This document shows positions 2,288-26,497 of a stretch of 42,789 nt of DNA, one piece after another (the first letter of the stretch is position 1; each line of letters begins with the position of its first letter). The stretch is taken from NCBI GenBank assembly GCA_001772625.1, contig MEVA01000003.1, forward strand, positions 1 to 42,789. The letters are read 5' to 3'. Source of the DNA: a candidate division WWE3 bacterium RIFCSPHIGHO2_01_FULL_42_13. GTDB lineage: Bacteria > Patescibacteriota > WWE3 > UBA101185 > UBA10185. A program made the translations under genes and the position numbers. The notes under the pieces are model-generated. The model was given only the letters and a program-made list of their open reading frames with translations. It had not been told where the DNA came from and did not search any database.

Positions 2288-2294
2288 GTTAACA

Positions 2295-2951: not shown

Positions 2952-2963
2952 AATGGCCCAGCT

Positions 2964-3116: not shown

Positions 3117-3127
3117 GTTCAGTAAGC

Positions 3128-3133
3128 TATACT
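3128..3133 (+). promoter_or_regulatory. -10 box (TATACT) 6 nt upstream of the rnpA ATG
   Basis: gcTATACTtcctacATG with no SD. Confidence 0.35.
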
Positions 3134-3139
3134 TCCTAC

Positions 3140-3487
3140 ATGCTTCCAAAATCCAACCGCCTTTCCTCAACCTACGAATTTAATAAAACCCGCAGGCTTG
3201 GTAAAAGAGTCAGCTCCCCCTTGTTTGATATCTTCTACCTTGATATATACAACTACGACGGTCCCTCCCGTATTGGGGTTGTGGTGACAAACAGATACAG
3301 TAAAATTGCTCCTGTACGAAATAGAGTAAAAAGAGTATTTCGAGAAGTTTTAAGGCACGCAGTAAAAAAAATTAAACCTGGGTATTGGATAGTAGTTCAC
3401 CCAAGAAAATCTGCTGAAAATAAAGGATATGAAGAAATTAGTATTGAAATTAATAAAGCTTTACCAAAAACACCTTTCTTCGGTTAA
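3140..3487 (+). CDS. rnpA: Ribonuclease P protein component
   Basis: 115 aa and basic, with the RNR motif ([11 protein letters not shown]). Conserved position after rpmH. Confidence 0.88.
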
Positions 3488-3644
3488 CTTTGGTGTGCAC
3501 GCCTGTAGGTTTACGCCCAGTTGTTCAGAGTATGCCTATCAAGCAATAGATAAGTACGGGGTATTGAGAGGCTCTTTAATGGGAACCTGGCGCGTGTTAA
3601 GATGTAACCCGTTATCAAAAGGCGGAAAGGACCCTGTTAAATAA
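3429..3644 (+). CDS. yidD: Membrane protein insertion efficiency factor YidD
   Basis: LYQKHLS...[45 protein letters not shown] matches the YidD signature. It overlaps the rnpA 3' end by 59 nt. Confidence 0.9.
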
Positions 3645-4871: not shown

Positions 4872-5984
4872 GTGAAATTTACGTGCTTGCAGGAAAACTT
4901 AGCTAAGGGGCTATCAATTGTAGGCAAAGCCATTTCAGTACGAGCCCCACTACCAATTCTTTCAAACGTTTTAATAAATGCTGAAGATGGAAGACTTAAA
5001 CTTTCCGCGTTTAATATGGAAACTGGAATTTCTACGTACGTGGGAGCTTCCGTCGAAACAGAAGGTTCAATTACTATCCCCGCAAGAATTCTAAGTGAAT
5101 TTGTTTCACTCCTTTCCCCTGGAACTGTAACGGGCGAACTGAAAGATTCTGTTTTGCACCTTTCCTCCGGTGGAACAAAATCAAAGTTTGTAGGTATGGC
5201 AGCTTCTGATTACCCAGAGCTTCCCCAAATGTCCAAAAAACTTCAAGTACTAGAGCTTGCGCCGCAAAAATTTTCGTCAGCAATAACTGCAGTGGGATTT
5301 TCCGCAGCTTTAGATGACAGCAGGCCAATTTTAGGTGGAATTTTGCTTAATTATGACAAGGGTGTTTTAACCGCCGTTTCAGCTGATGGATTTAGACTTT
5401 CCGAAAAAACACTGAAAGTTGGCAAGAAAGAAGCAGCCTTTAATGTTGTTGTGCCAGCAAAAACCCTCATTGAGGTTGTAAGACTTTTAGGAGGCTCTGA
5501 TGGACCAATTAAATTTGCACTGGACGCCAACGATAACCTTGCGTTATTTGAAGCCGACGGAATTTTAATTTCCACACGAATAATTGATGGGGCTTTTCCA
5601 GATTACAAAAAACTAATTCCAGGAGAAACTTCTCTAAGCGCGGAGTTTTCTGTAAGTGAACTTTTAGAGGCGGTAAAACTCACAAATGTTTTTGCAAAAG
5701 AAATGAACAGCGCAATAAGTTTAACCTTCGATCCAGAAGGAATGATTTACCTGTCGTCTACCGCTCAAGAGTCGGGTGAGAATAATAGCCAAGTTGCTGC
5801 AAAAATAACCGGAGAAAAACTGGAAATGGCTTTTAATGCTAAATTTCTACTAGATTTCTTAAATAACGCTAATGGCGAGCGAGTTAGCTTTTCTACAAAT
5901 GGAAACATGCTGCCAGGTTTATTAAAAGTGGTAGGAGACGAGGACTATCTGCACATTATAATGCCCCTAAGAGTTCAGAATTAG
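4872..5984 (+). CDS. dnaN: DNA polymerase III beta sliding clamp
   Basis: 370 aa with an N-terminus typical of DnaN (MKFTCLQENLAKGLSIVGKAISVRAPLPILSNVLI) and the three-domain length. GTG start directly after the jag stop, with an AAGGAAG SD about 8 nt upstream. Confidence 0.92.
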   Translation: MKFTCLQENLAKGLSIVGKAISVRAPLPILSNVLINAEDGRLKLSAFNMETGISTYVGASVETEGSITIPARILSEFVSLLSPGTVTGELKDSVLHLSSGGTKSKFVGMAASDYPELPQMSKKLQVLELAPQKFSSAITAVGFSAALDDSRPILGGILLNYDKGVLTAVSADGFRLSEKTLKVGKKEAAFNVVVPAKTLIEVVRLLGGSDGPIKFALDANDNLALFEADGILISTRIIDGAFPDYKKLIPGETSLSAEFSVSELLEAVKLTNVFAKEMNSAISLTFDPEGMIYLSSTAQESGENNSQVAAKITGEKLEMAFNAKFLLDFLNNANGERVSFSTNGNMLPGLLKVVGDEDYLHIIMPLRVQN

Positions 5985-8243
5985 TTAGTTTAACTGCGTT
6001 ACCCGAGTTTTTCCATCTTCACCTAAGCTTATTAATCCTTGATTTGAATCCTTTGTAGTATTTGGTCCAATGTCTTGTGCTGGAGTTGGAGTTGGGATTG
6101 GGGATTTGGGCTGCTGAACCTGCGGCTGTGCTTGCTGCGGCTGAGCGGCCGGAGCCTGTGGCGTTGGTGGCGGGCTTACAACCCTAACGTTTGAAGTTAG
6201 CGGAGCTTTAGGAGGTGTTGGTGTTGTGGCCATTGGTCTCGGAACCGTATTTTGCACGCCAACATCCTGCGCCGCATTAATAGGATCATATTTGCCTAGA
6301 TCCACGCTTTGCACAGGTTTATATATTTGTTTCGTAGGCCTCTGGGGAAGTTGTGGTTTTCGAGCCCATCGACTTGGTTGCGAGGTAGGTATAATTCTAG
6401 ACTGTAGTCCACTCGCAGCCTCGGACCGCATCTTCAAAATTTCCTCCGGATTAGTTGTTACCAATCTATGTTCCTCTGGGGAGGCAACTACTTTAATTGC
6501 CACGTGGTTTGCTCCAGCAAAGAATAACCCCTCCCCCTTATCTGCTGCCAAAAGTAAACGTTTTTCGCCCTCGGAAAGATAAAATACTTCCGCGACCCTA
6601 TCTATTGCTGCCGGGTGCTGTTTTAACAGAATTTGAATTGATGAGTTGCTAACAACAGCGTGCCCATACTCTGACTTTAGGAAATCATCAACATCCTGGG
6701 TAATTGTAGTAAGTCCCAAATAGTATTTACGGGCGCGTTTTGCAATTCCATACAAAAATTGTGCGCTATCCTTATTTTGCATCAAATACCACGCCTCTTC
6801 GATTATCAGTAACCTTTTCCGCAGGTCTTTTCTGGTTCGTGTCCAGATAAAGTCCAAAATCATGTAGAAAGCGATTGGTCGTAAAGTGTCCTCAAAATTT
6901 TTCGTTGAAAACACATTCATTTTTGAACCAAAATTAATATTAGATTGCTGATCGAAAATTCCAGCCATAGATCCTTTAATAAACTTTTCAAGTCTGTCGG
7001 CCATGCTTCTGGCTTCGGGTTCGGAGGCTCCGAGCAGCACTTTGTACAAGTCTTCCATAACCGGCGGCTCGATACTTTGCTGTGTGTCGGGATCTGGTGT
7101 AATACCCTTCAAACGATAAGTTTCAATTAAGGCCCTATCCAAAATAGCATCTTCAGTCGGACTCAAATCCCCCAACATCAGCCTCAACAGTGTGTGAAGA
7201 GAAAGAAGCTTTTGTCCAAGTTCGTTTTCCCCTTCAACTGCGATTCCGGATAAATCAAACGGGTTTATTTTCGAGGGTGAGTTGGCCGAGAAGTCTATGT
7301 AATTTCCACCCAATGCCTCACAAATAGGTTTATACTCCTCTTCAGGGTCGACAATCAGAATTTCAGAACCAAAAATTATTGATCTAATAACCTCAAGTTT
7401 TACCATGTAAGATTTTCCAGCCCCCGATTTTGCAAAAACAACCGTGTTAGCATTTTCCAACGAAAAGCGGTCAAAAATTATTAATGATCCGTTATGTTTA
7501 TTTAACCCATACATAATCCCGCTGTCAGAAGTTAGGTCAGAGGAGGTAAACGGAAAGGTTGTGGCTAGGCTTGTGGTGTCCATGTTTCTTGTTACAAGAA
7601 GCTTATCCACGGCGGCGGGGATTGAGGATTGTAACCCCTGCTCCATTTGTAAAGTTGCGTTCTTTGAAATTAAAAGTAGCGACCCCAAAGTTCCTTCCAA
7701 TTGTTTGGTTATATTTTCGAGTTCCTCCAAACTTTCAGCGGGAATCGTTATATAAAATGAGAATTGAAAGAACTTTTCGACACCTTTTACCAGCTGTTCT
7801 TGTAGTGAGTTAGCGTCTTCCAAAGCGGCAGTTACCACAGGGTCAGCAATCTTTCCCCTCTCTGCATCAGAATGGACGGTTGCTTCCAGCTCTGTTATTT
7901 TTCTTTTTAAATCATCCAATACCCCCTGTGATTTAACCGGATAATAAAACATAGAGATATCCAGAGAGTGGTCAAAGTTGATTATAGGTGAAAGCCAGTT
8001 TGCTCCAACAAATCTTGGATAACCGGAAACAAATAAAGTTCTATAGTAAATATTTCCAACTTTAACGTGGTTAAAGTCCACTTCTATTGCTGAGGGGGCA
8101 ATTATGTCTTTTATGTCTACCATTCCCCTTCCCAACACCTCCCCAGCTGAAGTACCAGGTTTTGGTTGGGCCTGCTCTTGGTCACCGATTAGTTTCTTTG
8201 GTCCCTTCTTTCCTATTGTTAGTTTAGGTAGGTTTATTTTCAT
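5985..8243 (-). CDS. VirB4/TraE-type type IV secretion ATPase with a C-terminal Pro/Gln-rich extension
   Basis: Walker A AKSGAGKS (7410-7433) and Walker B LLIIEEAW (6789-6812). The N-terminal VirB4-type domain and overall organisation resemble Gram-positive VirB4 homologs. The last ~145 aa are low-complexity P/Q/T-rich. Confidence 0.85.
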   Translation of the reverse strand: MKINLPKLTIGKKGPKKLIGDQEQAQPKPGTSAGEVLGRGMVDIKDIIAPSAIEVDFNHVKVGNIYYRTLFVSGYPRFVGANWLSPIINFDHSLDISMFYYPVKSQGVLDDLKRKITELEATVHSDAERGKIADPVVTAALEDANSLQEQLVKGVEKFFQFSFYITIPAESLEELENITKQLEGTLGSLLLISKNATLQMEQGLQSSIPAAVDKLLVTRNMDTTSLATTFPFTSSDLTSDSGIMYGLNKHNGSLIIFDRFSLENANTVVFAKSGAGKSYMVKLEVIRSIIFGSEILIVDPEEEYKPICEALGGNYIDFSANSPSKINPFDLSGIAVEGENELGQKLLSLHTLLRLMLGDLSPTEDAILDRALIETYRLKGITPDPDTQQSIEPPVMEDLYKVLLGASEPEARSMADRLEKFIKGSMAGIFDQQSNINFGSKMNVFSTKNFEDTLRPIAFYMILDFIWTRTRKDLRKRLLIIEEAWYLMQNKDSAQFLYGIAKRARKYYLGLTTITQDVDDFLKSEYGHAVVSNSSIQILLKQHPAAIDRVAEVFYLSEGEKRLLLAADKGEGLFFAGANHVAIKVVASPEEHRLVTTNPEEILKMRSEAASGLQSRIIPTSQPSRWARKPQLPQRPTKQIYKPVQSVDLGKYDPINAAQDVGVQNTVPRPMATTPTPPKAPLTSNVRVVSPPPTPQAPAAQPQQAQPQVQQPKSPIPTPTPAQDIGPNTTKDSNQGLISLGEDGKTRVTQLN

Positions 8244-8948
8244 CTATTCCTCTAAGATTGCTGGTTCGACCAGCGCTGTTTTATAATCTCCAATGCTTGT
8301 TCTAACCCTTTGACTTTGCGCTGTTGCGGGGTTGTAGAAGTCAAAGTAAAGTTCGACTATCTCTTGTGTGTTTAGTTGCCTAGCCTTTATCCCAAGCCTG
8401 TTAAACTCCCCGATTAAATGCTCAACTTTTGGAAGAAGATCCGGCTTAGCCCTCAATAGCGCCTGTTCAACATTCACCTTCACCCTTTTTGTGTGCATTC
8501 CAAGCAACCTTCCAATCCAATCAAACGGCGAGGAGCCAAGTTCCTGATATTTTGCACTCCCAGAGGGCACTACAACGTAGAATTTTTTATCTAAAACATC
8601 ATTTACTTTTATTATCTCCTGAATATACTTTCTGTAGGATTGCGCCTGCTGTTTCAAAAGAGGATCAGTAAGAGAGCGTTCAGTCTGAACAACTTTTGTT
8701 AAATAATTCGAAATATCCACCCTTTTTGATCTTATTACAACTTGCATCGGAAAAGTGATTGAGTTTAAAAGCATTGAAAATGCTGCGATGAGGGCATCCT
8801 GTTCTATTTCAGAAAGTAGTGCAAAGTTCACAGCTGTTGTTGTTATGACAGCAGCCACGTCCCCACTTTTCAGCACTACCAAGTCGTCCTTTATGTCCTC
8901 CATATCCAAGTGCTCTTGTGTAGTTGATTTAATTTCTGGAATAGTCAT
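8244..8948 (-). CDS. Hypothetical soluble protein resembling a standalone VirB4 N-terminal domain
   Basis: 234 aa with no TM. The N-terminus TTQEHLDMEDIKDDLVVLKSGDVAAVITTTAVNFALLSEIEQDALIAAFSMLLNSITFPMQVVIRSKRVD follows the same pattern as the VirB4 N-domain next door (VDIKDIIAPSAIEVDFNHVKVGNIYYRTLFVSGYPRFV...SLDISMFYYPV). Its stop abuts the virB4-like start. Confidence 0.45.
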   Translation of the reverse strand: MTIPEIKSTTQEHLDMEDIKDDLVVLKSGDVAAVITTTAVNFALLSEIEQDALIAAFSMLLNSITFPMQVVIRSKRVDISNYLTKVVQTERSLTDPLLKQQAQSYRKYIQEIIKVNDVLDKKFYVVVPSGSAKYQELGSSPFDWIGRLLGMHTKRVKVNVEQALLRAKPDLLPKVEHLIGEFNRLGIKARQLNTQEIVELYFDFYNPATAQSQRVRTSIGDYKTALVEPAILEE

Positions 8949-8951
8949 GCG

Positions 8952-10268
8952 TTATACTACCTTTCCGTCGAGAGTCAAAGGCGAAATAATCTGGCCTCTT
9001 GCCTCAACGTCAATTATATCAAAAGAATACCCACTTTCGTTGTTTACATCAGCAATAATTTTGTAATGCCCGTTTGGTAGCGGGTTTGTAATAGAAAACT
9101 GTCCCAAGGCATTTGTTTTTATAGCGCGTATAGGATCGTTGTGGGCGTTTTTAATTATAAGAAGGATATTTTGCAAACCTTTGTTTTTAACATCTCTCAC
9201 AACTCCAGCTACTACGTTTGGAATTGTGGTTTCTGGGGGTTTTGCCTCTACCGCTCTCTCGGCCAAAGTTTTGTTTGTGTCTTCTTTTACGGTTAAGTCT
9301 GACTGCGCATCTTTGGTTGCGGCGACTTGTTTCAAGAACTCTTTAAGTTGTTGGGCTTTTTCCTCGGCGCTTTGTTCTGCCTCAATTTCCTCAACAGGTC
9401 TAATTATTCTTTCTCCCCGAATAGGTAGAACTATGCTCCCATCGCTCGAAAGAAGGTTGGTAAATTTTCTTCCCGTGTGCCTATCTGGTGTTATTAGTGA
9501 AAGCGGCACAGACGGTGTTTGTGAAGGTGGAAATCTCAAACCCTGCTTTTGTCTTTTTATCTTTCGCGGCTGCTTGCTCGGAATTGCTTTTTGAATTTTT
9601 GGGGCCTCCTGGACTGCCGGCTTTTCGGTCGTTGGCTTGGTCTGTTGCTCCTGAAGCTGCTCGTTCTTGTATTCAGGTTCTGGCGTAGGTAGTGATTCAA
9701 ACTCAAACTGCTCCCCTTCGGTTATAGGCTCATCGAGAGCAACTGTAGTCTGCGCGGCACGCGCAGTTACAAAAGCTGCGTGAACCTTTTCTATATATGC
9801 CTGCTCGGGGATGTCTAAAGGGTCAACAATTTGGGTCTCCTGTTGGTATTGAAGATATTGCTCCAGCTTTCGTCTGCTGGCCGTGGGCGCGAGAGTTATT
9901 AACTCCTGTTTTACCAAGGCAATGTTTTCATGAAGAAACACTGCTGGAGGTGTGGGTTCCTTCCGCCAAACCTTTTGACTTTCTGTGTAAACTGCGGTAA
10001 AAAAATTAACCAACCACTCATCCAAGCCCCTATCTTCTACAGGTATAAAAGCAAATCCCAGCCCAAGGAGAAGCGAACCTACTATTGCGGGCCAGCGAAG
10101 AACAGCGGGAAGGTTAACGTAATAGGCCCCATACGCAATCGCACAAAAAATAAGCAGATAAAAGAACTGACGCATGGTCAGGTCTCCTATGAGTTTAAAC
10201 TCAACCTGCATTATGTTCTGTGGAACAGCGTGTTGCTGATTTATTTTGGGTCCGTCTCGTGGGGGCAT
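8952..10268 (-). CDS. PrgI/VirB3-like membrane protein fused to a low-complexity linker and a C-terminal carboxypeptidase-regulatory-like beta-sandwich
   Basis: The N-terminus AVPQNIMQVEFKLIGDLTMRQFFYLLIFCAIAYGAYYV plus a second TM matches the PrgI-family pattern. An E/Q/K/P-rich middle follows. The C-terminus is GVVRDVKNKGLQNILLIIKNAHNDPIRAIKTNALGQFSITNPLPNGHYKIIADV (CarboxypepD_reg-like). I chose ATG 10268; an alternative GTG lies at 10274. Confidence 0.6.
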   Translation of the reverse strand: MPPRDGPKINQQHAVPQNIMQVEFKLIGDLTMRQFFYLLIFCAIAYGAYYVNLPAVLRWPAIVGSLLLGLGFAFIPVEDRGLDEWLVNFFTAVYTESQKVWRKEPTPPAVFLHENIALVKQELITLAPTASRRKLEQYLQYQQETQIVDPLDIPEQAYIEKVHAAFVTARAAQTTVALDEPITEGEQFEFESLPTPEPEYKNEQLQEQQTKPTTEKPAVQEAPKIQKAIPSKQPRKIKRQKQGLRFPPSQTPSVPLSLITPDRHTGRKFTNLLSSDGSIVLPIRGERIIRPVEEIEAEQSAEEKAQQLKEFLKQVAATKDAQSDLTVKEDTNKTLAERAVEAKPPETTIPNVVAGVVRDVKNKGLQNILLIIKNAHNDPIRAIKTNALGQFSITNPLPNGHYKIIADVNNESGYSFDIIDVEARGQIISPLTLDGKVV

Positions 10269-10276
10269 GTGCACCT

Positions 10277-10282
10277 ATTATA
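10277..10282 (-). promoter_or_regulatory. -10 box (TATAAT) 8 nt upstream of ATG 10268
   Basis: Minus strand reads cttATAAT... precisely TATAATaggtgcacATG. Confidence 0.4.
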
Positions 10283-10326
10283 AGCGAAGATGGGATTTTT
10301 TGAAGGGGAGACTCTAAAAGCGAGAA

Positions 10327-11649
10327 TTATTTTCTTCTTGTCGGTTTTTTAGGTTCCAAGAAAGCTTCTTCAAGACGGCCCGGTATTTTGGTGGATTCAA
10401 TCAAAATCCACAGACCCAAGAGCGGGGCGGAAAAGGCCACGAAGGTAGCAGTGCCGAGTTGGCTAAGTATGTAGCCTATATCCCAGCTAAGATTTATGTT
10501 GAAAAAAGAAGACCACGCGGATCTCATTATAAAGAAGGCAAAATGGAGTCCAAAATACATTGCAGGTATAGACACAACTCGCACAGCTAACAGTTTAAAC
10601 CAATTTACGGTAAGAGCTTCGTTTCCAGGTATGGCCCCAAACGCAAATGTCAAAGGCGCGCTCACAATAGATATTATTATTTTTAGCGTTATTATGAGTC
10701 CTTTTATTGCAATAATAAACCACAAAATAAGCCAAATAATGCCAAAACCAATGAATACAAATGCGGCAACGCCCCCTGTGGCTATGGTGATCCCTATAAG
10801 CATTAAAATAACAACAACATCCGAAACCAAACCAACCCAGCCAAGGCTTGCATTTAGGTCATTAAAAATTGCCCCAGGTACCACGTTAAGAGGGCCTGTA
10901 AGTGAGGCAGCCAGCGCGCCGATTGGGTAACTGAACGTAATCAGTATTAAGGCGAGCACTACCCTCGGTAGGGCGTTTTGTACGGTTACGTTTACTCGTG
11001 GGCTAAGCTCCTTCCTCGTCATAATCATTATGCCGATTACAAGCATAGCTACAGCCAGAGCTCCGTATGCTAAGTTTCTGGTTACCACCCATACCTTAAG
11101 TATATGGTCGAGTAGAGGTTGGTTTTTATAGAGTGTTTTGTCTTGCGCAAACGCCGTATTTTTTAGAAGAGGTATCCTTTGTGCCGTGTAGTTTATATAG
11201 TAGGCCAAGCTAACCGGAGCGGGAGTTTTAAATGCGGCCTCATTGGTCAAAGTTGTAACTCCCATAAGCGTGCCTGAAGTTCTTGTGTACCTCGACGGGT
11301 CGCCGAGACCTTGACACTCCGGTGAAAACCCCCCAAGTCCAAATCTGCTTACGAAGTCTGATATGCATGCGTGTAACTGTCCAAGAGAGTACCCAGTTGC
11401 TAATGTGACTGGATAAAGCATGGACGATAAGAAAAGATTGGAGGATGTGCTGCTAATGTCAATATTAGGGTGGGCCTTCCGGTTGTTGTAATATATGCAC
11501 TCCTCTGGATTGTTGTTTGGTGTGTCACATGGGTCTCCAGCACCTTGAGCAAAAACTGGCAACGGAGTGCTGATTACCAGCACAGAAGTTATAAGGAAAA
11601 CGGACAGTATCTTTTTAAACCTCAGTTTCATACGCTCTAATTTTTTCAC
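10327..11649 (-). CDS. Polytopic membrane protein with signal peptide; VirB6/TrbL/ConG-like candidate
   Basis: 440 aa with signal peptide ...LVISTPLPVFAQGAG, a ~170-aa ectodomain containing Cys residues, then at least 6 TM helices. It lies in an operon-like array with PrgI-like and VirB4-like genes. The GTG start at 11649 is uncertain; ATG 11631 is an alternative. Confidence 0.45.
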   Translation of the reverse strand: MKKLERMKLRFKKILSVFLITSVLVISTPLPVFAQGAGDPCDTPNNNPEECIYYNNRKAHPNIDISSTSSNLFLSSMLYPVTLATGYSLGQLHACISDFVSRFGLGGFSPECQGLGDPSRYTRTSGTLMGVTTLTNEAAFKTPAPVSLAYYINYTAQRIPLLKNTAFAQDKTLYKNQPLLDHILKVWVVTRNLAYGALAVAMLVIGIMIMTRKELSPRVNVTVQNALPRVVLALILITFSYPIGALAASLTGPLNVVPGAIFNDLNASLGWVGLVSDVVVILMLIGITIATGGVAAFVFIGFGIIWLILWFIIAIKGLIITLKIIISIVSAPLTFAFGAIPGNEALTVNWFKLLAVRVVSIPAMYFGLHFAFFIMRSAWSSFFNINLSWDIGYILSQLGTATFVAFSAPLLGLWILIESTKIPGRLEEAFLEPKKPTRRK

Positions 11650-11700
11650 ATAATCTCACTTTATTCAACATAGATCTTTGCTATTTATGCTCAGTACCGT

Positions 11701-11706
11701 TAAAAT
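11701..11706 (+). promoter_or_regulatory. -10 box (TAAAAT) 6 nt upstream of ATG 11713
   Basis: cgtTAAAATtttttcATG with no SD. Confidence 0.4.
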
Positions 11707-11712
11707 TTTTTC

Positions 11713-14700
11713 ATGGCTTCAGGAAACCCACTCTACCCCGGCTATTATCCCGGCACACCTCAAATAAGAAGACCTCAAGGCGGAGGCCCCCCCAAACCAT
11801 ATTACGATCCAACCGCCCTACAGAAAATTTTGGAGTTGGAAATTGATACGGCAATCGAACCTATTGTCGGGGTGCCCAGGTGGTTTAAGGAAAGGCTTGT
11901 TGAGGATCTCAAATCCAGCTTGAAAAAATTTGTGTCCCCGGCCGGCGAAGATTATTCCGGTGCGGAAGCGCAACAGTTAGCAGCAATGTACAGCGCTGGG
12001 GAGTTGGAAGAAATGCCCGGCGTTTCTGGCATAGAGTTTAATTTCAATCCTGTGGATTGGATCACGAGCCCTTCCAAACAAATTACTAATTTCGCTAGAG
12101 ATGCTGCGAAAAACGTTTTTAATTGGGATGACTTTCAGCAACGAAGAGAAAATGAGTTTTGGGAAAACTTGTTACACGGCAAACCCGCACAAAGTAGGAT
12201 CGACTCTTGGTTTAGAGGGATGGCAGTAGGAGAGGCTCCCACACTAAGTCTCAGAGGTTATGGCGTTGTTACAAAAAGGCAGAAGGACGATTTTTTTGGA
12301 AACAAATATATTCAGACTGCCGATGTTTACGAGGAGGCAGCTCAGGGATTTATTGATGCGATGGCCGGTGCCAAATCTGTTATATCAAGGGGAAAAACTT
12401 ACGGGAAATGGCAAGGTAAGGTACTTACCGCAGTCAGGGAAGACATTGGTAGATATTTAGATCCTAAAAACACAGACCCTGCGATACGTGCGGTTGCGAA
12501 CACCCTTAGTGCTACGGAAAAAGGAGCCTTGGAGGCCCTTACCCTCCAAGCTGACCTTACTAACAAATCAGCGGAAGTTATGTCCAAACTTACAAAGGTT
12601 ACTGAGTCTGTGGACAAAGTTATCACTTCTGGAGCTTCCGTCGCAGACATCCAAAGCAAGCTCGGCTCCTTGTCGAGAAATGTTTCTGATGCCGAGGAAA
12701 TTATTAATAAGATAAATCAAGGAGGAAGCACCGGTCAAATGGTGATTTCCGTAGAGGTAGAAAAAAGAATCAAAGATATAGAGGACAACATTAACTACAT
12801 CAAAGGAAATATCTTGAATGTAGATCCAACCACCCCCAACTTTTCACCAAAAGTTTTTAGATCCGTCGTGGAGGGTCAGAGATCATCTATGATCACCGGC
12901 AACCTTTTCGTAAACAAAGGCGGGGTTCTTAGGGCTGGTACGGTGAGTAATTTGGCAACAGAAGTAATAGAAAAGGAACTGCTTAACGAAAATTCCGCAG
13001 CAAGCAGAGCTATGAGAAAGCTGGGTATGCGGGGACCGGAGGCTACAAGAAGACTAGCTGTTATAGCAAACACAAGAAGAGACCAAGAAGTACTAATTGA
13101 TTTTCTTGACTCTGTTTCTAAAGGTACCGTCTTAAAAACACACCTTTGGACGTTATTTATAAAGCCTCGAGTTATGGCGTGGACACCTGCTTACACGGCA
13201 GAAAAGTTTTTAGAGAAAACATTTTTCTTTGGGGCCTCTATACCTAACGATGCCAAGACATTTGATGAGGGGTATGGGTTTTTCAAGAACATGGTTAAGG
13301 GAAAGGGTGCGTTTAAGAACATGGTTGAAATTAATGGGCTTGATTCAGGGTTAAACCCATTGTTCAAAATTAAGTTCCAAGGCGACGAAATGTTTCACGT
13401 GCCCAAGGCGTTTTTGGGTTTTGCAGATAAGGCGAACGAAATAAGATTTATTGATGCAATAAGAGATTCCAAAAGCAAAACGGACCTTTTACATTTTTTT
13501 AATGGGAGGTTTGCTGCTTCGGGAGTTCAACCAGGAGTGACGGCGACCTTTCCAAATCTTCCTGAAGGTATGCCTAAAGCTTTGGTGCTAAAGTTCAGAA
13601 AGTTTTTATATGAGCACAGAGCTGAATTTGGCAATCTTACACAAGAAGGCCTCCTTTTCGATGCGAAGGGATTACTTATTACAACAGGGGCGGATGGCGA
13701 GCATAACTTTGCTATAATTCACGCTTTTATTAATGGAATTGGGGAAAGAGAGCGTAAAGGTTATTTCGTAAGCATCACAAGTAAATATTCCGGTTGGTTG
13801 GAAAAGATTACACAAAAGCTCAACCACGTACAAAATAAAGTTTATAGTCGTCTAAGTCCAATCATAGGACGAATAACCTACCCAATTACTGTTATAACAC
13901 AGCGAGTTGTCGATGTGCTTACTACGGCAATCATGGGTGCTTTGGAAGCCGTTTCCGCCGGAGCAGCTGTAGTGCTCGCACCCATTGTTAAATTAATCGT
14001 GAAGTTTGTGGTTGCGGCGGTAGCCAGATCAATTGCGCGTTTTGGTAGCTCCATTGGAAAGGCCATTCTCAAATTTGATTTCTCCGAAATATTTGAACAA
14101 GCGGCAGAGGCCCGTGAGAGGTCTTTAAAAACAACAGTTATACTTTTATCTATACCACTCCTTCTTGTTGGTTTAATATTTTTCATCGTTTTTGGAGGCA
14201 TGTCAGCTATTCTCTCTACAATTTCTCCAACAGACCCAACTAGAGGCGCTGTTGCAATAGACATTGATGGAGGCGTAATAAGTGATTACGAGGGAGGTTC
14301 TGCAGTAGACATAGACTGCTTTACGTTTGTGGATTCTACCAGCACAATTACGATTGGCGGAAGCACCTATCACTTAAAAGCTTGGGATCAAAATCAAGTG
14401 AGTGGTGTTTTTGCCTCTGCTATAGCCGCACTGCAATCAAGAAGCGGAGCTTATTTAGGTAAGCTGTGTGCCGCAGGCTCAATCACTTTATTAAGGGCTT
14501 CGGATACGCCAGGCAACTGCGCTCACGTAAGTGCCTCAGATGAGATAGTTTATACAGACCAGTGTAGCTATTCCACACAAACCTATGTTGATTACTTGTT
14601 TGCCCACGAAACAGGACACGTTTACGATGGGAGAAATGCTGACATTTACGGACTTTTTGAGAGCTATGTTTATGGGGAGCCTAAGATACCTACCTACTCT

Positions 14701-14856
14701 TTATCCTGCGGGGGTGGGCAATCCGTCAGTGAAGACTTTGCTGAAACAATAGGAGTAACCATTGGTGTTAATAACGACTGTGCGCCAGCGTACACTTTAA
14801 ATTGGGCAAACCATCCAAAGCATCTAGAGTTTGCCAGAAACTATTTGTTTAATTAG
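11713..14856 (+). CDS. Giant membrane protein: ~720-aa cytoplasmic N-region, TM cluster, C-terminal extracytoplasmic zincin-like (HExxH) module
   Basis: 1047 aa with no signal peptide and a Pro/Gly-rich N-terminus. A hydrophobic cluster lies at about 13876-14203. HETGH at 14605-14619 sits in the context LFAHETGHVYDG, followed by SEDFAETIG. The C-terminal module contains several Cys. Confidence 0.6.
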   Translation: MASGNPLYPGYYPGTPQIRRPQGGGPPKPYYDPTALQKILELEIDTAIEPIVGVPRWFKERLVEDLKSSLKKFVSPAGEDYSGAEAQQLAAMYSAGELEEMPGVSGIEFNFNPVDWITSPSKQITNFARDAAKNVFNWDDFQQRRENEFWENLLHGKPAQSRIDSWFRGMAVGEAPTLSLRGYGVVTKRQKDDFFGNKYIQTADVYEEAAQGFIDAMAGAKSVISRGKTYGKWQGKVLTAVREDIGRYLDPKNTDPAIRAVANTLSATEKGALEALTLQADLTNKSAEVMSKLTKVTESVDKVITSGASVADIQSKLGSLSRNVSDAEEIINKINQGGSTGQMVISVEVEKRIKDIEDNINYIKGNILNVDPTTPNFSPKVFRSVVEGQRSSMITGNLFVNKGGVLRAGTVSNLATEVIEKELLNENSAASRAMRKLGMRGPEATRRLAVIANTRRDQEVLIDFLDSVSKGTVLKTHLWTLFIKPRVMAWTPAYTAEKFLEKTFFFGASIPNDAKTFDEGYGFFKNMVKGKGAFKNMVEINGLDSGLNPLFKIKFQGDEMFHVPKAFLGFADKANEIRFIDAIRDSKSKTDLLHFFNGRFAASGVQPGVTATFPNLPEGMPKALVLKFRKFLYEHRAEFGNLTQEGLLFDAKGLLITTGADGEHNFAIIHAFINGIGERERKGYFVSITSKYSGWLEKITQKLNHVQNKVYSRLSPIIGRITYPITVITQRVVDVLTTAIMGALEAVSAGAAVVLAPIVKLIVKFVVAAVARSIARFGSSIGKAILKFDFSEIFEQAAEARERSLKTTVILLSIPLLLVGLIFFIVFGGMSAILSTISPTDPTRGAVAIDIDGGVISDYEGGSAVDIDCFTFVDSTSTITIGGSTYHLKAWDQNQVSGVFASAIAALQSRSGAYLGKLCAAGSITLLRASDTPGNCAHVSASDEIVYTDQCSYSTQTYVDYLFAHETGHVYDGRNADIYGLFESYVYGEPKIPTYSLSCGGGQSVSEDFAETIGVTIGVNNDCAPAYTLNWANHPKHLEFARNYLFN

Positions 14857-14870
14857 TGTGAGAATAATAT

Positions 14871-15491
14871 ATGTTAAGAAACCTACTAAATAAATATAAA
14901 AGCGCCATAATATTACTTTTCCTTATAACGCTTTTGTTCTTTTCCGCAATCTTTTTAAGTGGAGAAGATCCGTCCCAACAGCCCATCCCGGTCCCATTTG
15001 TTAAAGAAAGTCGTTCCGAGGAGAAGAATGTGTGGAACGATTTGCTTCCAGGAACATCGGCTGTTATTGAGGGCGAAGATGTTGGATCGGCAGAATTTTT
15101 AAATCAGGAAAGTTACAATGATTTGTACTCGGTCTCGATGTACAAGTTAGAGGGTCCCGAAGCATCCAATGTTCCGACAGAGGTTTACTCGAAGAAAGAT
15201 ACCGGAGTTGTGGATTATATTATCGTTCCAGTTCTTAATACAAGTCAGGGTCATTTGGAGAGAGTAATAGAGGAAAACAATCTAGGAGAACCAGACCTTG
15301 AGTTGTATGTTGTAGATGAGTTTGCACAAAAAATGTATGTGTTTTTGGGTGAGGGTTTGGCATTTAGAGCCAATGAAATTTCTGGGGGCATTATAAGGCG
15401 CATTTACTTTACGCCAACAACCGCCGAAAGGTTTTTGGAGTTTTGGGGTGGTGCAGCCTCCGTAGAAGAGCCGCTATTCCAGCACCCTTGA
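14871..15491 (+). CDS. Bitopic membrane protein (N-terminal TM anchor + ~170-aa ectodomain), function unknown
   Basis: 206 aa with SAIILLFLITLLFFSAIFL as the single TM. It starts 14 nt after the 1047-aa gene, so it is probably co-transcribed. Confidence 0.55.
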   Translation: MLRNLLNKYKSAIILLFLITLLFFSAIFLSGEDPSQQPIPVPFVKESRSEEKNVWNDLLPGTSAVIEGEDVGSAEFLNQESYNDLYSVSMYKLEGPEASNVPTEVYSKKDTGVVDYIIVPVLNTSQGHLERVIEENNLGEPDLELYVVDEFAQKMYVFLGEGLAFRANEISGGIIRRIYFTPTTAERFLEFWGGAASVEEPLFQHP

Positions 15492-15501
15492 TTGCGGCTG
15501 A

Positions 15502-15969
15502 CTACTTATAGTTCTCAATGCCTGCTATCCTGAAGAGGTTCTCAAGCCCCTGTTGCAACCTTTGGAAAGGTGCCAGAACGACCACTTCTTTTAAGCCAAA
15601 AATTCTTTGGATAAAACTTAGTATTAGATACATTCCTATGATAACCGCAAATCCCAATAAAGCGTGAGTTAGGGTGCTCTTTGCTCCATCCAGGCCTTTT
15701 GGATCTCCTTGCGACAGTGCATATTTGTAAGCGCCCATAAAAATCATAAGTACAAACCCAGCCCCAGCGAGCAGAGTCAGAACGTTTAAAATTCCAACAA
15801 TCGGACATATAATCTGTAACGGAGAGGGCGCATAATTGTTTTTTTCCACCAGATTTCTCTCGGATATATTACAGAAAGACGTATCAGGGTCTGTTATCTG
15901 CGCATGGGCCGTATTAGTAGATAGTATCAAAATCAAAATTATTGCTGTTAGTACTTTTATTTTGCTCAT
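15502..15969 (-). CDS. VirB2/TrbC-like T4SS pilin paralog (155 aa)
   Basis: Signal peptide MSKIKVLTAIILILILSTNTAHAQ followed by two TM helices. They flank the shared loop motif GAYKYALSQGDPKGLDGAKSTLTHALLG. Confidence 0.6.
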   Translation of the reverse strand: MSKIKVLTAIILILILSTNTAHAQITDPDTSFCNISERNLVEKNNYAPSPLQIICPIVGILNVLTLLAGAGFVLMIFMGAYKYALSQGDPKGLDGAKSTLTHALLGFAVIIGMYLILSFIQRIFGLKEVVVLAPFQRLQQGLENLFRIAGIENYK

Positions 15970-15993
15970 ATTAATTATTAATTACAGGAGTTT

Positions 15994-16308
15994 CTAAATC
16001 CCCACGGGCAGTATTGGTATTTCCTGTTCCGTAAAAACACCCGACACTATCCCAACTATTGTGTACGCAGTGATAGTTAATATCATAGCAATAATACTGT
16101 AAGTTAATGCATTTTTTGCTGACGTCGCGGCTTTTATGTCCCCGCGGCTTGTAATATATTTTATACCTGAAAGTATTACGGCGATTAAAGAAATGGCAGC
16201 CCCGATACCAAACGCAACATTTAAGGCCACGGCTACATAGTCCCCAAGCGTAGTAAATTCCCCTATATTTGCAATCGGATTAAGGTAATTATCAAACATA
16301 AATTTCAA
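15994..16308 (-). CDS. VirB2/TrbC-like T4SS pilin paralog (104 aa)
   Basis: Two TM helices flank SGIKYITSRGDIKAATSAKNALTYSII, the same motif as the neighbouring paralogs. Confidence 0.6.
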   Translation of the reverse strand: MKFMFDNYLNPIANIGEFTTLGDYVAVALNVAFGIGAAISLIAVILSGIKYITSRGDIKAATSAKNALTYSIIAMILTITAYTIVGIVSGVFTEQEIPILPVGI

Positions 16309-16311
16309 AGC

Positions 16312-16346
16312 CTACAAAACACCGCGGCCTCGGCAAGCGAGGCCGC
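16312..16346 (-). terminator. Intrinsic-terminator-like hairpin between pilin genes
   Basis: Perfect 9-bp GC-rich stem GCGGCCTCG/CGAGGCCGC (16324-16346) with a 5-nt loop. On the minus strand GGUGUUUUGUAGG follows it. It begins 19 nt after the stop of the 112-aa pilin gene. Confidence 0.6.
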
Positions 16347-16364
16347 ATACCTCTCCACTAAAGC

Positions 16365-16703
16365 TTAGAGACCGATATTGGGAACTGGCTCCTCAACTCC
16401 GCCGCCCGAGGCCCCAAGTATCGAGACCATCACTGTTTTAATAGTAAAGGCTCCAATAACAACGATGAATCCAATTACCGCGTTGGTCAAAGAAGTGCGT
16501 GCTTCTTGTGCCGCCTTTTGATCGCCTTTAGAGGTGATGTACTGAATACCTCCAAGAATTAGGAAAATTATCGTTAAGGAAATACCAATTCCAAGCACAA
16601 CGTTCACCGCCAATGTAAATACATCAGTAAGAGAAGTTATGTTTGTTATTGTTACTTGTTTAAGAGTGACTGCGTATACCGGTTGCAATAGATTCGCTAG
16701 CAT
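16365..16703 (-). CDS. VirB2/TrbC-like T4SS pilin paralog (112 aa); candidate major pilin
   Basis: Two TM helices flank GGIQYITSKGDQKAAQEARTSLTNAVIG. It has the strongest SD in the locus (AAGGGGGTG about 10 nt upstream of the ATG) and the only clear terminator hairpin downstream. Confidence 0.62.
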   Translation of the reverse strand: MLANLLQPVYAVTLKQVTITNITSLTDVFTLAVNVVLGIGISLTIIFLILGGIQYITSKGDQKAAQEARTSLTNAVIGFIVVIGAFTIKTVMVSILGASGGGVEEPVPNIGL

Positions 16704-16725
16704 TAAGAATACACCCCCTTTTAAA

Positions 16726-17334
16726 TTAATTTACAATCAATGTCTTAACTATTGTTTGCAGAATTCCAATAGCTAGTAATACAAATAATAAGCCCATTAT
16801 AGCAGAAGTTAAATGTTCCTTGCCTTCCTGTGTTCTCGCGGGATCTCCCTGACTGGTCATTAACATGTATCCGGCCCTTCCTATTAAGAGCACCCCTATT
16901 ATTATTGATATGGGTAGGAGTATGTCAAAGATAATGTTTATAAACGTTTCAAATGCGTCTGGGTCCCCGGGGGTAGGAGGTTGTGGCCCCGTGCACCGAC
17001 AGTTACCAGAGGCATCACATTGCCCGCCGATATATCCACCTGCAATACATGCGGCGCTGCACGCCTGGTTGCAGGCTGGGGTACCGCCCGTTCCCCCACA
17101 GTTAATGGGCGGGTCGCCACTGCACTGGCATTCGAAATGCCCGCTGTTAGTCATACAGCAAGCAACAAAACTCTGATTCAAGGTGTCACACGTTTGCCTG
17201 CAGGTGGCTTCTGTCTGAGCGTTACAGGATGCACCCAGGGCAAACTCCTTGGTGCTTAACGAAAAAAACACTATCAGCAATATGCTAACAAATAAAAATA
17301 CTCTGACTGATTTGCTTTGATATAATGCGTTCAT
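16726..17334 (-). CDS. Secreted fusion protein: two tandem 7-Cys defensin-like (CS-alpha/beta-pattern) modules + Pro-rich linker + C-terminal VirB2-like pilin domain
   Basis: Signal peptide MNALYQSKSVRVFLFVSILLIVFFSLSTKEFALGA. The Cys-rich region (16993-17226) holds 14 Cys. The C-terminal pilin motif is RAGYMLMTSQGDPARTQEGKEHLTSAIMG between two TM helices. I chose ATG 17334; a GTG at 17340 is an alternative. Confidence 0.7.
   Translation of the reverse strand: MNALYQSKSVRVFLFVSILLIVFFSLSTKEFALGASCNAQTEATCRQTCDTLNQSFVACCMTNSGHFECQCSGDPPINCGGTGGTPACNQACSAACIAGGYIGGQCDASGNCRCTGPQPPTPGDPDAFETFINIIFDILLPISIIIGVLLIGRAGYMLMTSQGDPARTQEGKEHLTSAIMGLLFVLLAIGILQTIVKTLIVN
17318..17326 (+). promoter_or_regulatory. 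Extended -10 promoter (TGaTATAAT) 6 nt upstream of ATG 17333
   Basis: ttTGaTATAATgcgttcATG. It lies inside the first codons of the divergent pilin-fusion gene. Confidence 0.45.
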
Positions 17335-19156
17335 GCCCACTGTCAGGAATTATCGAGGTTATGATACTACGAGTCAAGTATCCCTACTTTTCATAGCATT
17401 TTTTGTTATAACGTTTGCGTTGTTTGTACCTGTAGTTTTCGCAACTCATGAGTGTAAAGACAAGGAGGGGACCGAATTAGATGAATGCCTTGCCAATGCA
17501 AAATCAGCTGCCAGCGAAGACCTGTCGTCTGCAAGAAGCAGCCTAAACCGAGTTGTAGATGATATTAACAAGTACCTTAGCGAACTTTCCGTGACACAAA
17601 GCCAGATAGATCAGTTGCAGATAGACATAAACGGTGTTTATGCCGAGCTTTATAAAATAAATAATAATTTGGAAGTTAGAAGGGTTAGGTTGCAAGATAG
17701 CGTTTCGTTAAGAGATTCTGTTATTCGAGCCTACTATCAATCGGGAAAGCTTTCAGCTCTTGAGTTCTTTGTTTTACAAACCCCAAGTTTAAATGGCTTT
17801 AGACTTTCCTCCTTGGTTTACGCTTACGACAAATCAGTCACGGAGGAGGCCTTAAATATTATTAAGCGACTACATTTCGAAATAACAATTTTTGAAAAAG
17901 ATAAGGCGGAGGCCGAAGGTTTAAAAACTGAATTAGAAACAGCACAACAGAGGCTAATTTCGCTAAAGACTGATATTGATGCGAAACGTGCTCAGGCCGA
18001 AGCGGAAAAGGCTGAGTTGGGTGAGGAAATAGCTTCGCTGGAGCAAAAAATTGCGGATCTTTCGGCAAAGCAGCAGGCAATTTTGGCGGCCAAGGGTGGC
18101 GAAGGTGTTGTTAGTGGATATGAAGCAGGAGAATATGAGCTACCAGACCCTCCTTTTAGCCCGGCATTTGCGGCAATGAGTTACGGAGCTTACACACACT
18201 ACAACGGCATGAGCCAATACGGTGCAAGAGGTCGTGCGGAAGATGGGCAGAGTTACGAAAAGATTTTAAATCATTATTATGAAACCGATGTGAAAGATGA
18301 GTGGGACGACGATGGAGATGAAGAGATAGACGTTGAGGGTTATGGAGAAATGAGTTTTCAGGAATATCTTTATGGAATTGCTGAAATGCCAAGTAGTTGG
18401 CACGAAGAGGCGCTCAAAGCACAAGCAGTTGCCGCAAGAACATACGCATACCGCGCCGGTAAGCCGATTTGTACGAGTGATAGTTGCCAAGTTTTTAGTA
18501 TTTGTAAAGCGACTGGGGAATATCAGGATGGCACTACTGATGAGAACTGCGAGCAAAAGTATAATTCATCTGGTGCTTGGAGAGATGCAGTTGATGATAC
18601 GAATGGGAAAATTTTAGACGACCCTGAAACTTCGCAATATTCCTCAACAACCGGAGGGTATCTTAATCAATCTGGTTGGGATGCTGATGGAGATTGGCCA
18701 GGAGATGCATATGAGAAAAAAGGCAAATCGCCGTGGTTTTATAAAGCCTGGTATACCCAAACCTACAATGACAATTCCGACAAATGTGGCCGCTCAACCC
18801 CTTGGTTAGACGAAGAAGAAATGGCGGATATCTTGAATTCCTGGGTTGTGTGGTCAAAAGGCTCAGGCGATGAAAGGGATCATATCTCCCCTGTTACCAC
18901 AAGCTGTTGGGGAGGCGATCCATACTCTAACGATGAGATGAAGGACAAGGCTGACGATCACGGAGATTCTTACAGCAGTGTAAACAGCGTGTCCGTCGAT
19001 ATAGGCAATAACGGCCGTACCGCAACTGTTCACTTTGGAACAGATAACGGATCGGTAAACATTAGCGGAGAGGACTTTAAAACAGTTTTCAACTTAAGAG
19101 CGCCAGGTTACGTTTCTCTAAGAAGCAGGCTTTTTGATATTGAGATGGAAAATTAA
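17333..19156 (+). CDS. Secreted/anchored coiled-coil protein with a C-terminal SpoIID/LytB-type domain (peptidoglycan glycan-strand hydrolase)
   Basis: N-terminal hydrophobic segment, then a ~200-aa heptad-rich region (about 17495-18083) that resembles CwlO/PcsB N-domains. SpoIID signatures are MSQYGARGRAEDGQSYEKILNHYY and YLYGIAEMPSSWHEEALKAQAVAARTYAY. Confidence 0.78.
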   Translation: MPTVRNYRGYDTTSQVSLLFIAFFVITFALFVPVVFATHECKDKEGTELDECLANAKSAASEDLSSARSSLNRVVDDINKYLSELSVTQSQIDQLQIDINGVYAELYKINNNLEVRRVRLQDSVSLRDSVIRAYYQSGKLSALEFFVLQTPSLNGFRLSSLVYAYDKSVTEEALNIIKRLHFEITIFEKDKAEAEGLKTELETAQQRLISLKTDIDAKRAQAEAEKAELGEEIASLEQKIADLSAKQQAILAAKGGEGVVSGYEAGEYELPDPPFSPAFAAMSYGAYTHYNGMSQYGARGRAEDGQSYEKILNHYYETDVKDEWDDDGDEEIDVEGYGEMSFQEYLYGIAEMPSSWHEEALKAQAVAARTYAYRAGKPICTSDSCQVFSICKATGEYQDGTTDENCEQKYNSSGAWRDAVDDTNGKILDDPETSQYSSTTGGYLNQSGWDADGDWPGDAYEKKGKSPWFYKAWYTQTYNDNSDKCGRSTPWLDEEEMADILNSWVVWSKGSGDERDHISPVTTSCWGGDPYSNDEMKDKADDHGDSYSSVNSVSVDIGNNGRTATVHFGTDNGSVNISGEDFKTVFNLRAPGYVSLRSRLFDIEMEN

Positions 19157-19791: not shown

Positions 19792-20013
19792 ATGATTAAT
19801 CTAATAAACCCCTCAGAATTATTGCCGCTAGTGAAAGTAACGATTTTAATCGCAGAGGGCCTTTACGCAATTTTTGCTTTTATAGTTGTTAGGCAGACTT
19901 CTTTAATGAATAAAACTTTTCAAACTGGCGCAGGGCTTCTGCTCAATCTTTTTTCAAGAACGCACTTTTTTGCCGTACTTGGGCTATTTGTACTGACCTT
20001 AATTATTTTATGA
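19792..20013 (+). CDS. Small two-TM membrane protein
   Basis: 73 aa from ATG 19792 (MINLINPSELLPLVKVTILIAEGLYAIFAFIVVRQ...). The earlier ORF start at 19762 would overlap the upstream gene. Its stop overlaps the next ATG (ATGA). Confidence 0.5.
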   Translation: MINLINPSELLPLVKVTILIAEGLYAIFAFIVVRQTSLMNKTFQTGAGLLLNLFSRTHFFAVLGLFVLTLIIL

Positions 20014-26488: not shown

Positions 26489-26497
26489 TAAAAATTG

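Follow-up and report, generated by a model that had tools for sequence, protein, structure and literature searches.

We analysed a 42,789-nt stretch (hereafter the window) of contig MEVA01000003.1 from a WWE3 bacterium (Katanobacteria; Patescibacteriota, candidate phyla radiation), which carries at positions 5985-19156 a locus resembling a type IV secretion system (T4SS). We hold with high confidence that this locus belongs to the chromosomal T4SS family of Patescibacteria. Pilus-bearing, relaxase-less and origin-proximal T4SSs of this kind have already been described in the candidate phyla radiation, and the WWE3 locus is an ordinary member. What our analysis adds is modest, namely a large, previously unnamed protein family with interchangeable, probable wall-peptidase heads and, in one close genome pair, a locus-replacement signal in which the T4SS has a deeper history than its flanks. 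As an overall explanation we favour, with somewhat better than even confidence, a machine that would be derived from the MPF-FATA (MPF, mating-pair formation) apparatus and would work as a device for contact with a host envelope rather than for conjugation.

The general architecture has been documented in several recent studies. In Southlakia epibionticum, Wang et al. (2023) annotated SEML1_0006-0019 as a T4SS of Gram-positive-like type, which includes a pilin array but neither coupling protein nor relaxase, and transposon sequencing (Tn-seq) showed that epibiotic growth depends on this cluster, pilins included (PMC10633639), a requirement known only for this species. In the survey by Quinonero-Coronel et al. 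(2025), VirB4 was detected in 2,417 of the 3,035 patescibacterial genomes examined, spanning 18 of 20 classes, as its own clade inside MPF-FATA, accompanied by TrsD, PrgI/VirB3, VirB6 and arrays of 2-11 VirB2-like pilins; relaxases were nearly absent (103 of 3,035 genomes), the systems often lay near dnaA/dnaN, and a repurposed, non-conjugative function was proposed (PMC12102498). A 2025 review gives the same picture (PMC12857230), while a 2024 perspective called the role of the T4SS, substrate and direction included, "completely unknown" (PMC11665869). An earlier sequence-only reading of the same DNA had described the locus in terms that match the 2023-2025 papers closely, and its claim of novelty therefore fails. 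Its statement that no such locus had been functionally characterised has likewise been overtaken by the Tn-seq in Southlakia (PMC10633639), whereas the non-conjugative role that it proposed is the same conclusion that the literature has reached.

Core components of the secretion machine

All eleven open reading frames (ORFs) that the sequence-only reading had called in the locus proved to lie where it had placed them, and profile hidden Markov model (HMM) searches upheld its VirB4, split N-domain, PrgI/VirB3 and VirB2-type pilin calls. The product of virB4 (5985-8243, minus strand) matches the NCBIfam model NF045971 conju_CD1110 with an E-value of 7e-112 and 375 bits (cutoff 325), which indicates an MPF-FATA affinity, as well as PF19044 (7e-27). 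Since the conju_CD1110 match covers profile positions 185-735 only, this ATPase is missing the VirB4 N-domain. The missing part is, judging from its profile matches, supplied by trsD (8244-8948, minus strand), whose stop codon abuts the virB4 start codon and which encodes a stand-alone 234-aa protein resembling the VirB4 N-domain. It matches the N-terminal part of VirB4_plasma (6e-11) and TrsD/TraD (1.3e-7), with NCBIfam scores under their cutoffs, and its precomputed Pfam assignment is PF26593 (TraC-like); a separate trsD ORF of 230-235 aa is present in the related loci examined. TrsD also matches the Mbov_0397 (VirB4) family of the Mycoplasma integrative and conjugative element (ICE).

Within VirB4, Walker A reads AKSGAGKS and Walker B reads LLIIEEAW from aa 478 (aa 478-485, ~6790-6813). 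The latter has EEAW in place of the usual DEAW, a form shared by 25 of the 53 matches in related loci, most of them from WWE3. The C-terminal ~150 aa (aa ~600-752; 5985-6440) constitute a P/Q-rich low-complexity tail, and this is the gene's most diverged part (65% nucleotide identity at 6301-6600) relative to the closest other genome, contig CAZGUN010000001 (hereafter L025).

Upstream of trsD lies a gene for a 440-aa PrgI/VirB3-like protein (8952-10274, minus strand), which scores 35.4 bits against PF12666 (gathering score 27). Its PrgI domain (aa 17-93) with two transmembrane helices is joined by a low-complexity linker to a beta-sandwich (aa 355-411), this C-terminal domain giving a sub-threshold match of 25.1 bits to PF13620 (CarboxypepD_reg-like), and the same domain pair is found in the orthologue of another WWE3 locus, L050. 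The next gene (10327-11649, minus strand) encodes a polytopic protein, also of 440 aa, with a signal peptide, a helical ectodomain containing four cysteines and a helical membrane bundle. It has no sequence match in Pfam, NCBIfam or the PDB, the family profile included, and none of its 179 detected homologues carries a Pfam domain. An AlphaFold (AF2) model built on 61 of the homologous sequences (pLDDT 85.7, pTM 0.80) was compared with the PDB using Foldseek, and the top five matches were all TrwI/VirB6 of R388 (7o3v, 8rt9, 8rtd), at modest scores (E 0.025-0.18, probability 0.87-1.0, TM score 0.35-0.44). The VirB6 call of the sequence-only reading thus finds support in the predicted fold and none in the sequence, where no HMM matched, and we take this as backing for the assignment that falls short of proof. 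Between the operon that begins with this gene and the divergent gene for a 1047-aa protein are 63 bp (11650-11712), which presumably hold promoters for both directions; weak promoter-like matches were seen at 11627-11654 and 11678-11706.

Pilin array and SpoIID hydrolase

Four tandem pilin genes occupy 15502-17340 on the minus strand, and all of their products contain a two-helix hairpin. Against PF18895 (gathering score 26.6 bits), the 204-aa (16726-17340), 112-aa (16365-16703) and 104-aa (15994-16308) pilins score 33.6, 33.2 and 30.6 bits, respectively. The 155-aa paralogue (15502-15969), which has a signal peptide and a VirB2-like hairpin, scores 20.4 bits, below the gathering score, and aligns with the other three at 24-31% identity. 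The 204-aa pilin, which scores 23 bits against TrbC, under the gathering score, has a C-terminal pilin domain and a signal peptide. Between the two is an insert with 14 cysteines (aa 39-116) and a weak Defensin_2 match, which might be a ligand-binding or tip module.

The 112-aa protein is provisionally the probable major pilin, because among the four it shows the strongest conservation in WWE3 (48-74% identity), and its gene has a strong Shine-Dalgarno sequence and a terminator-like hairpin of its own behind it. This hairpin (16323-16347, minus strand) lies 17 nt past the stop codon and consists of a 10-bp stem with 8 GC pairs and a T-run; with a fold z-score of only -1.75, its identification as a terminator is likewise provisional. 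A PDB sequence search with the pilin profiles returned nothing. Three of the four pilins match the pilin-like Mbov_0395 family of the Mycoplasma ICE at 7e-9 to 1e-6, below the cutoff (6e-8 for the 104-aa paralogue), and one monoderm MPF-FATA lineage, at the least, would thus have related small two-helix proteins, a hint that monoderm MPF-FATA systems do not lack VirB2-like proteins altogether.

The array is followed on the plus strand by a 607-aa wall hydrolase (17333-19156), in which an N-terminal transmembrane helix and a coiled coil precede a SpoIID domain (PF08486, 3.6e-17), the coiled coil and the SpoIID domain having been described in the sequence-only reading. SpoIID is one of two dedicated wall-hydrolase candidates, the other being the family of the 1047-aa protein, with M23 or CHAP-like heads in relatives and an unclassified HExxH domain here.

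A large protein family with interchangeable heads

The 1047-aa membrane-anchored protein (11713-14856, plus strand) comprises a helical N-terminal part (aa 1-730), a membrane block (aa 735-840; nt 13915-14232) and a cysteine-rich, zincin-like head (aa 868-1047; nt 14314-14853), which carries the motif HETGH at aa 965-969 (nt 14605-14619). Basic residues precede and acidic residues follow the last membrane helix (aa 808-835), and the N-terminal part is likely cytoplasmic and the head extracellular. A word-index homologue search with this protein gave three matches, and an exhaustive HMMER search was needed to uncover a family of at least 209 representatives, mostly of 1,000-1,500 aa. The conserved body corresponds to residues 1-845, of which a mostly helical region of ~700 aa has no Pfam or PDB relative. 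Two motifs are kept in all three head classes described below, a nearly invariant N-terminal NP-x-Y-PGYYPG(-x-P) (11713-11790) and a juxtamembrane P-x-DPTR just past the last transmembrane helix (~14215-14240), of which the first might be a signal for docking and the second a site of processing. A PDB fold search with the full-length model found nothing (best E 0.12, probability 0.1). In a viral-library fold search, tape-measure and minor-tail proteins came out on top, and with TM scores of at most 0.12 and probabilities of at most 0.5 they are not counted as evidence.

The C-terminal heads, ~200 aa in length, fall into discrete classes. Class A heads (48 representatives) are M23 peptidases, and their profile has as its best PDB match an M23 peptidase (9gy1, 3e-5), with ShyA and further M23 enzymes ranking next. 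Class C heads (21 representatives) show conserved Cys, His and Asn columns with weak matches to CHAP, NlpC/P60 and cell-wall hydrolase families; by our own reading of the consensus, the column arrangement looks CHAP/NlpC-P60-like. Class B, to which the 1047-aa protein belongs, has the HExxH motif in 36 of 36 representatives, in the near-constant context F-A-H-E-x-G-H, together with nearly invariant cysteines and an invariant glutamate in an EDFAE motif ~40 residues downstream; its matches to zincin families, among them Reprolysin_5, M78 and DUF5700, are weak and scattered. The HExxH that the sequence-only reading had pointed out in this protein is therefore confirmed as invariant across the class B alignment.

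The heads also differ between orthologues at the same syntenic slot. Besides the HExxH head reported here, the WWE3 loci carry M23 heads in six cases, a CHAP-like head in one and other types in five, and there is none in L025. The L025 counterpart (1951-3984 of that contig) is a 677-aa protein that ends ~30 residues after the membrane block, headless, and has no bitopic partner gene. Outside WWE3, a neighbour of virB4 in Southlakia encodes SEML1_0007, an essential protein of 1,113 aa whose C-terminal part is listed as a DD-peptidase fold (Wang et al. 2023 Table S2, PMC10633639). The HExxH of the 1047-aa protein is therefore a real and conserved motif, and its head belongs to a set of modules that replace one another on the same T4SS-linked body. 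Because it is positionally equivalent to the M23 and CHAP-like heads, we infer that it cuts peptidoglycan.

Downstream on the plus strand, a gene for a 206-aa bitopic protein with a single N-terminal transmembrane helix (14871-15491) had been suggested to encode a VirB8-like component, a suggestion that did not hold. The protein has no Pfam or NCBIfam profile match and is an orphan, its detectable relatives among 5.8 billion proteins all being at least 92% identical, so that neither profiles nor homologues support VirB8 identity and the resemblance is one of topology only. The corresponding slot in other WWE3 loci always holds a bitopic protein, in six of them composed of a transmembrane helix and a Big_5 Ig-like domain, and an hhalign comparison of the profile of this positional family with the 206-aa protein gave a match confined to the transmembrane helix. 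Bitopic proteins of the VirB8 type with an NTF2 fold (e.g., PrgL, TraM, TcpC) were not identified by profile at the locus.

Conserved position and probable replacement of the locus

The locus is flanked by dnaN (4872-5984) on one side and by smpB (21690-22145) and the tmRNA gene ssrA (22149-22542) on the other, which agrees with the position given by the sequence-only reading; virB4 abuts dnaN, and dnaA is 3.8 kb off. About 13 WWE3 genomes share the order dnaA-rpmH-rnpA-yidC-jag-dnaN followed by virB4-trsD-prgI-virB6-like, the big protein, the bitopic protein and the pilins. In these loci, three to five pilin genes are present, the large and bitopic proteins are encoded on the opposite strand, and PrgI varies from 439 to 890 aa. 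The spoIID gene lies divergently beside the pilin array in all four genomes that show this side (the present one, L025, L049 and L050), and the context beyond it differs. From the conserved order beside dnaN it follows that the T4SS locus is a fixed part of the WWE3 chromosome, with spoIID marking its edge, and the core-chromosome location that the sequence-only reading had assigned to it is upheld. A VirB4 search returned 45 distinct genome loci, all of them from metagenome-assembled genomes, mostly labelled WWE3, Saccharibacteria or Patescibacteria group, at 50-86% identity. The same VirB4 protein occurs in three independent assemblies, where the surrounding locus is 99-100% identical.

The comparison with L025 suggests that the locus, despite sitting in the core chromosome, is not simply vertically inherited. 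Proteins of the flank (dnaA, rnpA, yidC, jag and dnaN) are 94-99% identical between the two genomes, while identity amounts to 86% for VirB4, 85% for TrsD, 64% for PrgI, 39-68% for the pilins, 32% for the VirB6-like protein and 36%, over parts only, for the large protein. At the nucleotide level, identity drops from ~89% to 65-83% exactly at the dnaN/virB4 junction, similarity vanishes from the prgI start to the pilins, and it is back at 96% from the spoIID start (109 nt, to the contig end). Synonymous divergence (dS) of the flanks is 0.50-0.67, whereas the proportion of synonymous differences (pS) for VirB4, TrsD, PrgI and the major pilin reaches 0.70-0.78, which is saturated; dN/dS (nonsynonymous to synonymous) for VirB4 is 0.034. 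Between species, VirB4 is usually better conserved than dnaN (e.g., 65-78% vs. 45-56%). Given that VirB4 normally out-conserves dnaN and has a low dN/dS, the excess divergence from L025 points to deeper coalescence and not to faster protein evolution. The pattern indicates that recombination with a more distant WWE3 allele replaced the entire locus in one or the other lineage. A metagenome scan with DnaN for further close strain pairs gave a best match of 68% identity and none that was usable, and an all-against-all check of the fetched loci revealed no second informative pair.

Functional interpretation

The sequence-only reading had seen no DNA-transfer genes in this DNA, and this was upheld. 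Pfam scans of the larger ORFs of the window found no coupling protein, relaxase, VirB11 or integrase, and the other large ORFs gave housekeeping Pfam families only; gene calls with Pfam for the related loci L001-L003, L049 and L050 likewise included no type IV coupling protein (T4CP), relaxase or integrase. Searches around the locus for att-like direct repeats and for an oriT-like inverted repeat produced only short matches at chance level. Set against what defines an MPF-FATA plasmid or ICE, relaxase and coupling protein are absent from the window, and the signs of a mobile element (integrase, att sites, variable site) were not found. An adjacent VirD4/relaxase/oriT module, which would have made the locus an ordinary conjugative element, did not come out of these scans.

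We propose that the machine derives from a monoderm MPF-FATA conjugation apparatus that would have lost its relaxase/coupling-protein link and gained an array of VirB2-like pilins. By homology with other T4SSs, the split ATPase of TrsD and VirB4 would dock at the membrane via PrgI/VirB3, and the VirB6-like protein would serve as a membrane platform, on which pilins extracted from the membrane by VirB4 would be polymerised into a VirB2-type filament. In this filament the 112-aa pilin would probably predominate, with the remaining three as variants or minor components. Two proteins would open the wall, SpoIID by hydrolysing glycan strands and the 1047-aa protein by means of a peptidase head held on the outer side of the membrane. 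Pilus and swappable head would then act on the host envelope, opening it and delivering or exchanging macromolecules. If the envelope-exposed parts act on the host envelope in this manner, they would define host specificity, and the replacement of such determinants by recombination would explain both the head swapping and the cassette exchange. For this host-envelope-breaching mechanism of an epibiotic lifestyle our confidence is evenly balanced.

Several points weigh against this interpretation. The VirB6 identity depends on weak fold scores (best E 0.025, TM score 0.44), and the HExxH head, which has no significant Pfam or PDB relative, owes its presumed wall-peptidase role to positional equivalence. 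Head swapping could also reflect changes in the organism's own wall. The locus replacement is based on one pair of metagenome-assembled contigs, with a right boundary of just 109 nt, and the genome may have a gene for a coupling protein outside the window.

In falling order of likelihood, the alternatives are an import machine, a pilus that serves for adhesion only, and conjugation that relies on partner genes elsewhere in the genome. The first, in which the T4SS takes host DNA or other macromolecules into the epibiont, as ComB or Ced do, and so supplies nucleotides that the cell cannot make, is the most serious of them, even if we consider it rather unlikely. The literature favours import because comEC is dispensable in Southlakia but the T4SS cluster is essential (PMC10633639, PMC12857230). 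A VirB4 without an adjacent coupling protein is likewise what ComB and Ced have, VirB4 gives a weak match to CedB (2e-10, far below the cutoff), and pili and wall-breaching enzymes would fit import as well as export. What counts against import is that nothing in the locus is DNA-specific (no DNA-binding protein, nuclease, or ComEA or ComEC partner), that the CedB match is generic VirB4 similarity, and that sequence does not reveal the direction of transport.

The pilus could also be an attachment organelle only, an adhesin of VirB2 type that holds the cell on its host while nothing passes through. The divergence of the pilin paralogues from one another (24-31% identity to the 155-aa one), combined with cassette exchange, does resemble antigenic or receptor variation, and the cysteine-rich insert of one pilin could bind a ligand. 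Adhesion and motility are, however, already served by type IV pili in Patescibacteria, and a presumed dedicated wall peptidase and a SpoIID hydrolase have been retained with the machine; hydrolase and peptidase genes are moreover essential in Southlakia. This makes a purely adhesive role improbable in our judgement.

Ordinary conjugation, in which the locus would be the mating-pair-formation module of a system with relaxase, coupling protein and oriT elsewhere in the genome, is very unlikely. It gains from the score of VirB4 above the cutoff of a conjugal-transfer ATPase family and from the fact that T4CP homologues are common in Patescibacteria and rarely adjacent to virB4 (PMC12102498), with our gene search covering the 42.8-kb window. 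It is hard to combine with a fixed position beside dnaN in ~13 WWE3 genomes, with a window in which integrase, att-like repeat and relaxase were not found, and with reports that only 103 of 3,035 patescibacterial genomes have relaxases and that the T4CP is non-essential in Southlakia (PMC12102498). Finally, a self-directed apparatus for wall remodelling or division, with a vestigial T4SS resemblance, would fit SpoIID and M23-type enzymes as classical wall-remodelling enzymes and the setting among housekeeping genes, but strong purifying selection on VirB4 (dN/dS 0.034), the maintenance of complete pilin arrays and a head turnover between close relatives that is hard to square with a conserved self substrate make it scarcely tenable.

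Returning to the host-envelope device, an extended and more speculative form, which we consider doubtful, would make the T4SS locus the host-range cassette of WWE3. The VirB6-like protein, pilins and peptidase head would be exchanged as a block through homologous recombination in the dnaN and spoIID flanks, and the head class (M23, CHAP-like, HExxH or DD-peptidase) would correspond to the type of peptidoglycan in the host wall that has to be breached. In its boldest version, the 1047-aa protein itself may be threaded through the machine into the host envelope, like a phage tape-measure protein. The WWE3 locus does not alter the general picture, since its headline architecture is already in the literature, and its value lies in the head-swapping family and the deeper locus history as testable handles on what is transported and in which direction. 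If head type and cassette type turned out to track host identity, the T4SS would be the host-range determinant of these uncultivated epibionts.

Origin region and neighbouring genes

On the dnaA side, the window contains dnaA (783-2222, minus strand), rpmH (2964-3116), rnpA, yidC, jag and dnaN. With one mismatch allowed, DnaA boxes cluster on both sides of dnaA, four at 541-754 and two at 2195-2223, and the cumulative GC skew climbs from these clusters onward; oriC is therefore probably located in this region, ~3.8 kb from the T4SS locus. The rpmH gene, which encodes the 50-aa ribosomal protein L34 directly upstream of rnpA, was absent from the default ORF list because it is too short. A 251-aa polytopic ORF between dnaA and rpmH (2196-2951) has no Pfam match, and the sole large indel of the housekeeping flank relative to L025 falls here, with no L025 similarity across 2245-2946.

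Beyond the T4SS locus follow genes for a bPH_2 protein and a 551-aa protein, smpB, the tmRNA gene, glycosyltransferase genes, glmS, tRNA genes, dnaG and rpoD. The 551-aa protein (20010-21665, between the bPH_2 gene and smpB) is bitopic, with a transmembrane helix at aa ~240-265 and no Pfam match, and is not encoded next to the T4SS in L049 or L050. A ComFC-like gene (25654-26361; double zinc ribbon and phosphoribosyltransferase domain) lies 6.5 kb past the locus, and a comF gene near T4SS genes has been noted in class ABY1 (2025 survey, PMC12102498). Two mechanically called ORFs, 26433-27110 and 36737-38059, overlap tRNA-Ser genes at 26401-26488 and 37866-37955, respectively, and probably have their true starts further downstream, unless the first is spurious.

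Comparison with known systems

Helicobacter pylori ComB, Bordetella Ptl and archaeal Ced resemble the WWE3 locus in being driven by VirB4, in having no adjacent VirD4 and in their non-conjugative roles (import or Sec-dependent export). ComB and Ptl are, in contrast, diderm systems with VirB7-10 core complexes, Ced is without VirB2-type pilins, and the three have no accessory genes in common with the WWE3 locus. The module of the Mycoplasma ICEs is similar in its components, with three of the four pilins related to Mbov_0395 and TrsD and VirB4 to Mbov_0397, all below the family cutoffs, whereas those ICEs are mobile and carry DNA-processing genes.

Closer still are the monoderm MPF-FATA systems (pCF10 Prg/Pcf, the CTn2 CD1110 family, pGO1 Trs and ICEBs1), with which the locus shares a CD1110-family VirB4, TrsD, PrgI, a putative VirB6-type polytopic protein, a candidate for a dedicated multidomain wall hydrolase (cf. 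PrgK, TraG of pIP501 and CwlT) and the lack of an outer-membrane core complex. It differs from them in having no relaxase, coupling protein, oriT or adhesin, in residing in the core chromosome and not on a plasmid or ICE, and in possessing VirB2-like pilins, which MPF-FATA systems reportedly lack. The ~730-aa and probably cytoplasmic N-terminal part of the WWE3 candidate hydrolase is also not seen in PrgK or CwlT.

The Southlakia cluster, for this comparison SEML1_0004-0019, is from Saccharimonadia and the present locus from WWE3, and the two differ in layout, as one long block plus pilins in the former and two divergent blocks in the latter. The VirB6-like protein has 440 aa in WWE3 and 1,088 aa in Southlakia, the head is an unclassified HExxH zincin instead of a DD-peptidase fold, SpoIID stands in place of the lysozyme/CHAP protein SEML1_0006, and an NTF2-like (VirB8-like) protein was not found in the WWE3 locus. 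What they have in common is a VirB4 with a separate TrsD-like protein, PrgI, a VirB6-like protein, a PF18895 pilin array, wall glycosidases, a cluster without relaxase or T4CP, a position a few kb from dnaA/dnaN, and a protein of ~1,100 aa with a C-terminal wall-peptidase head (SEML1_0007), which is by its description a putative homologue of the 1047-aa protein.

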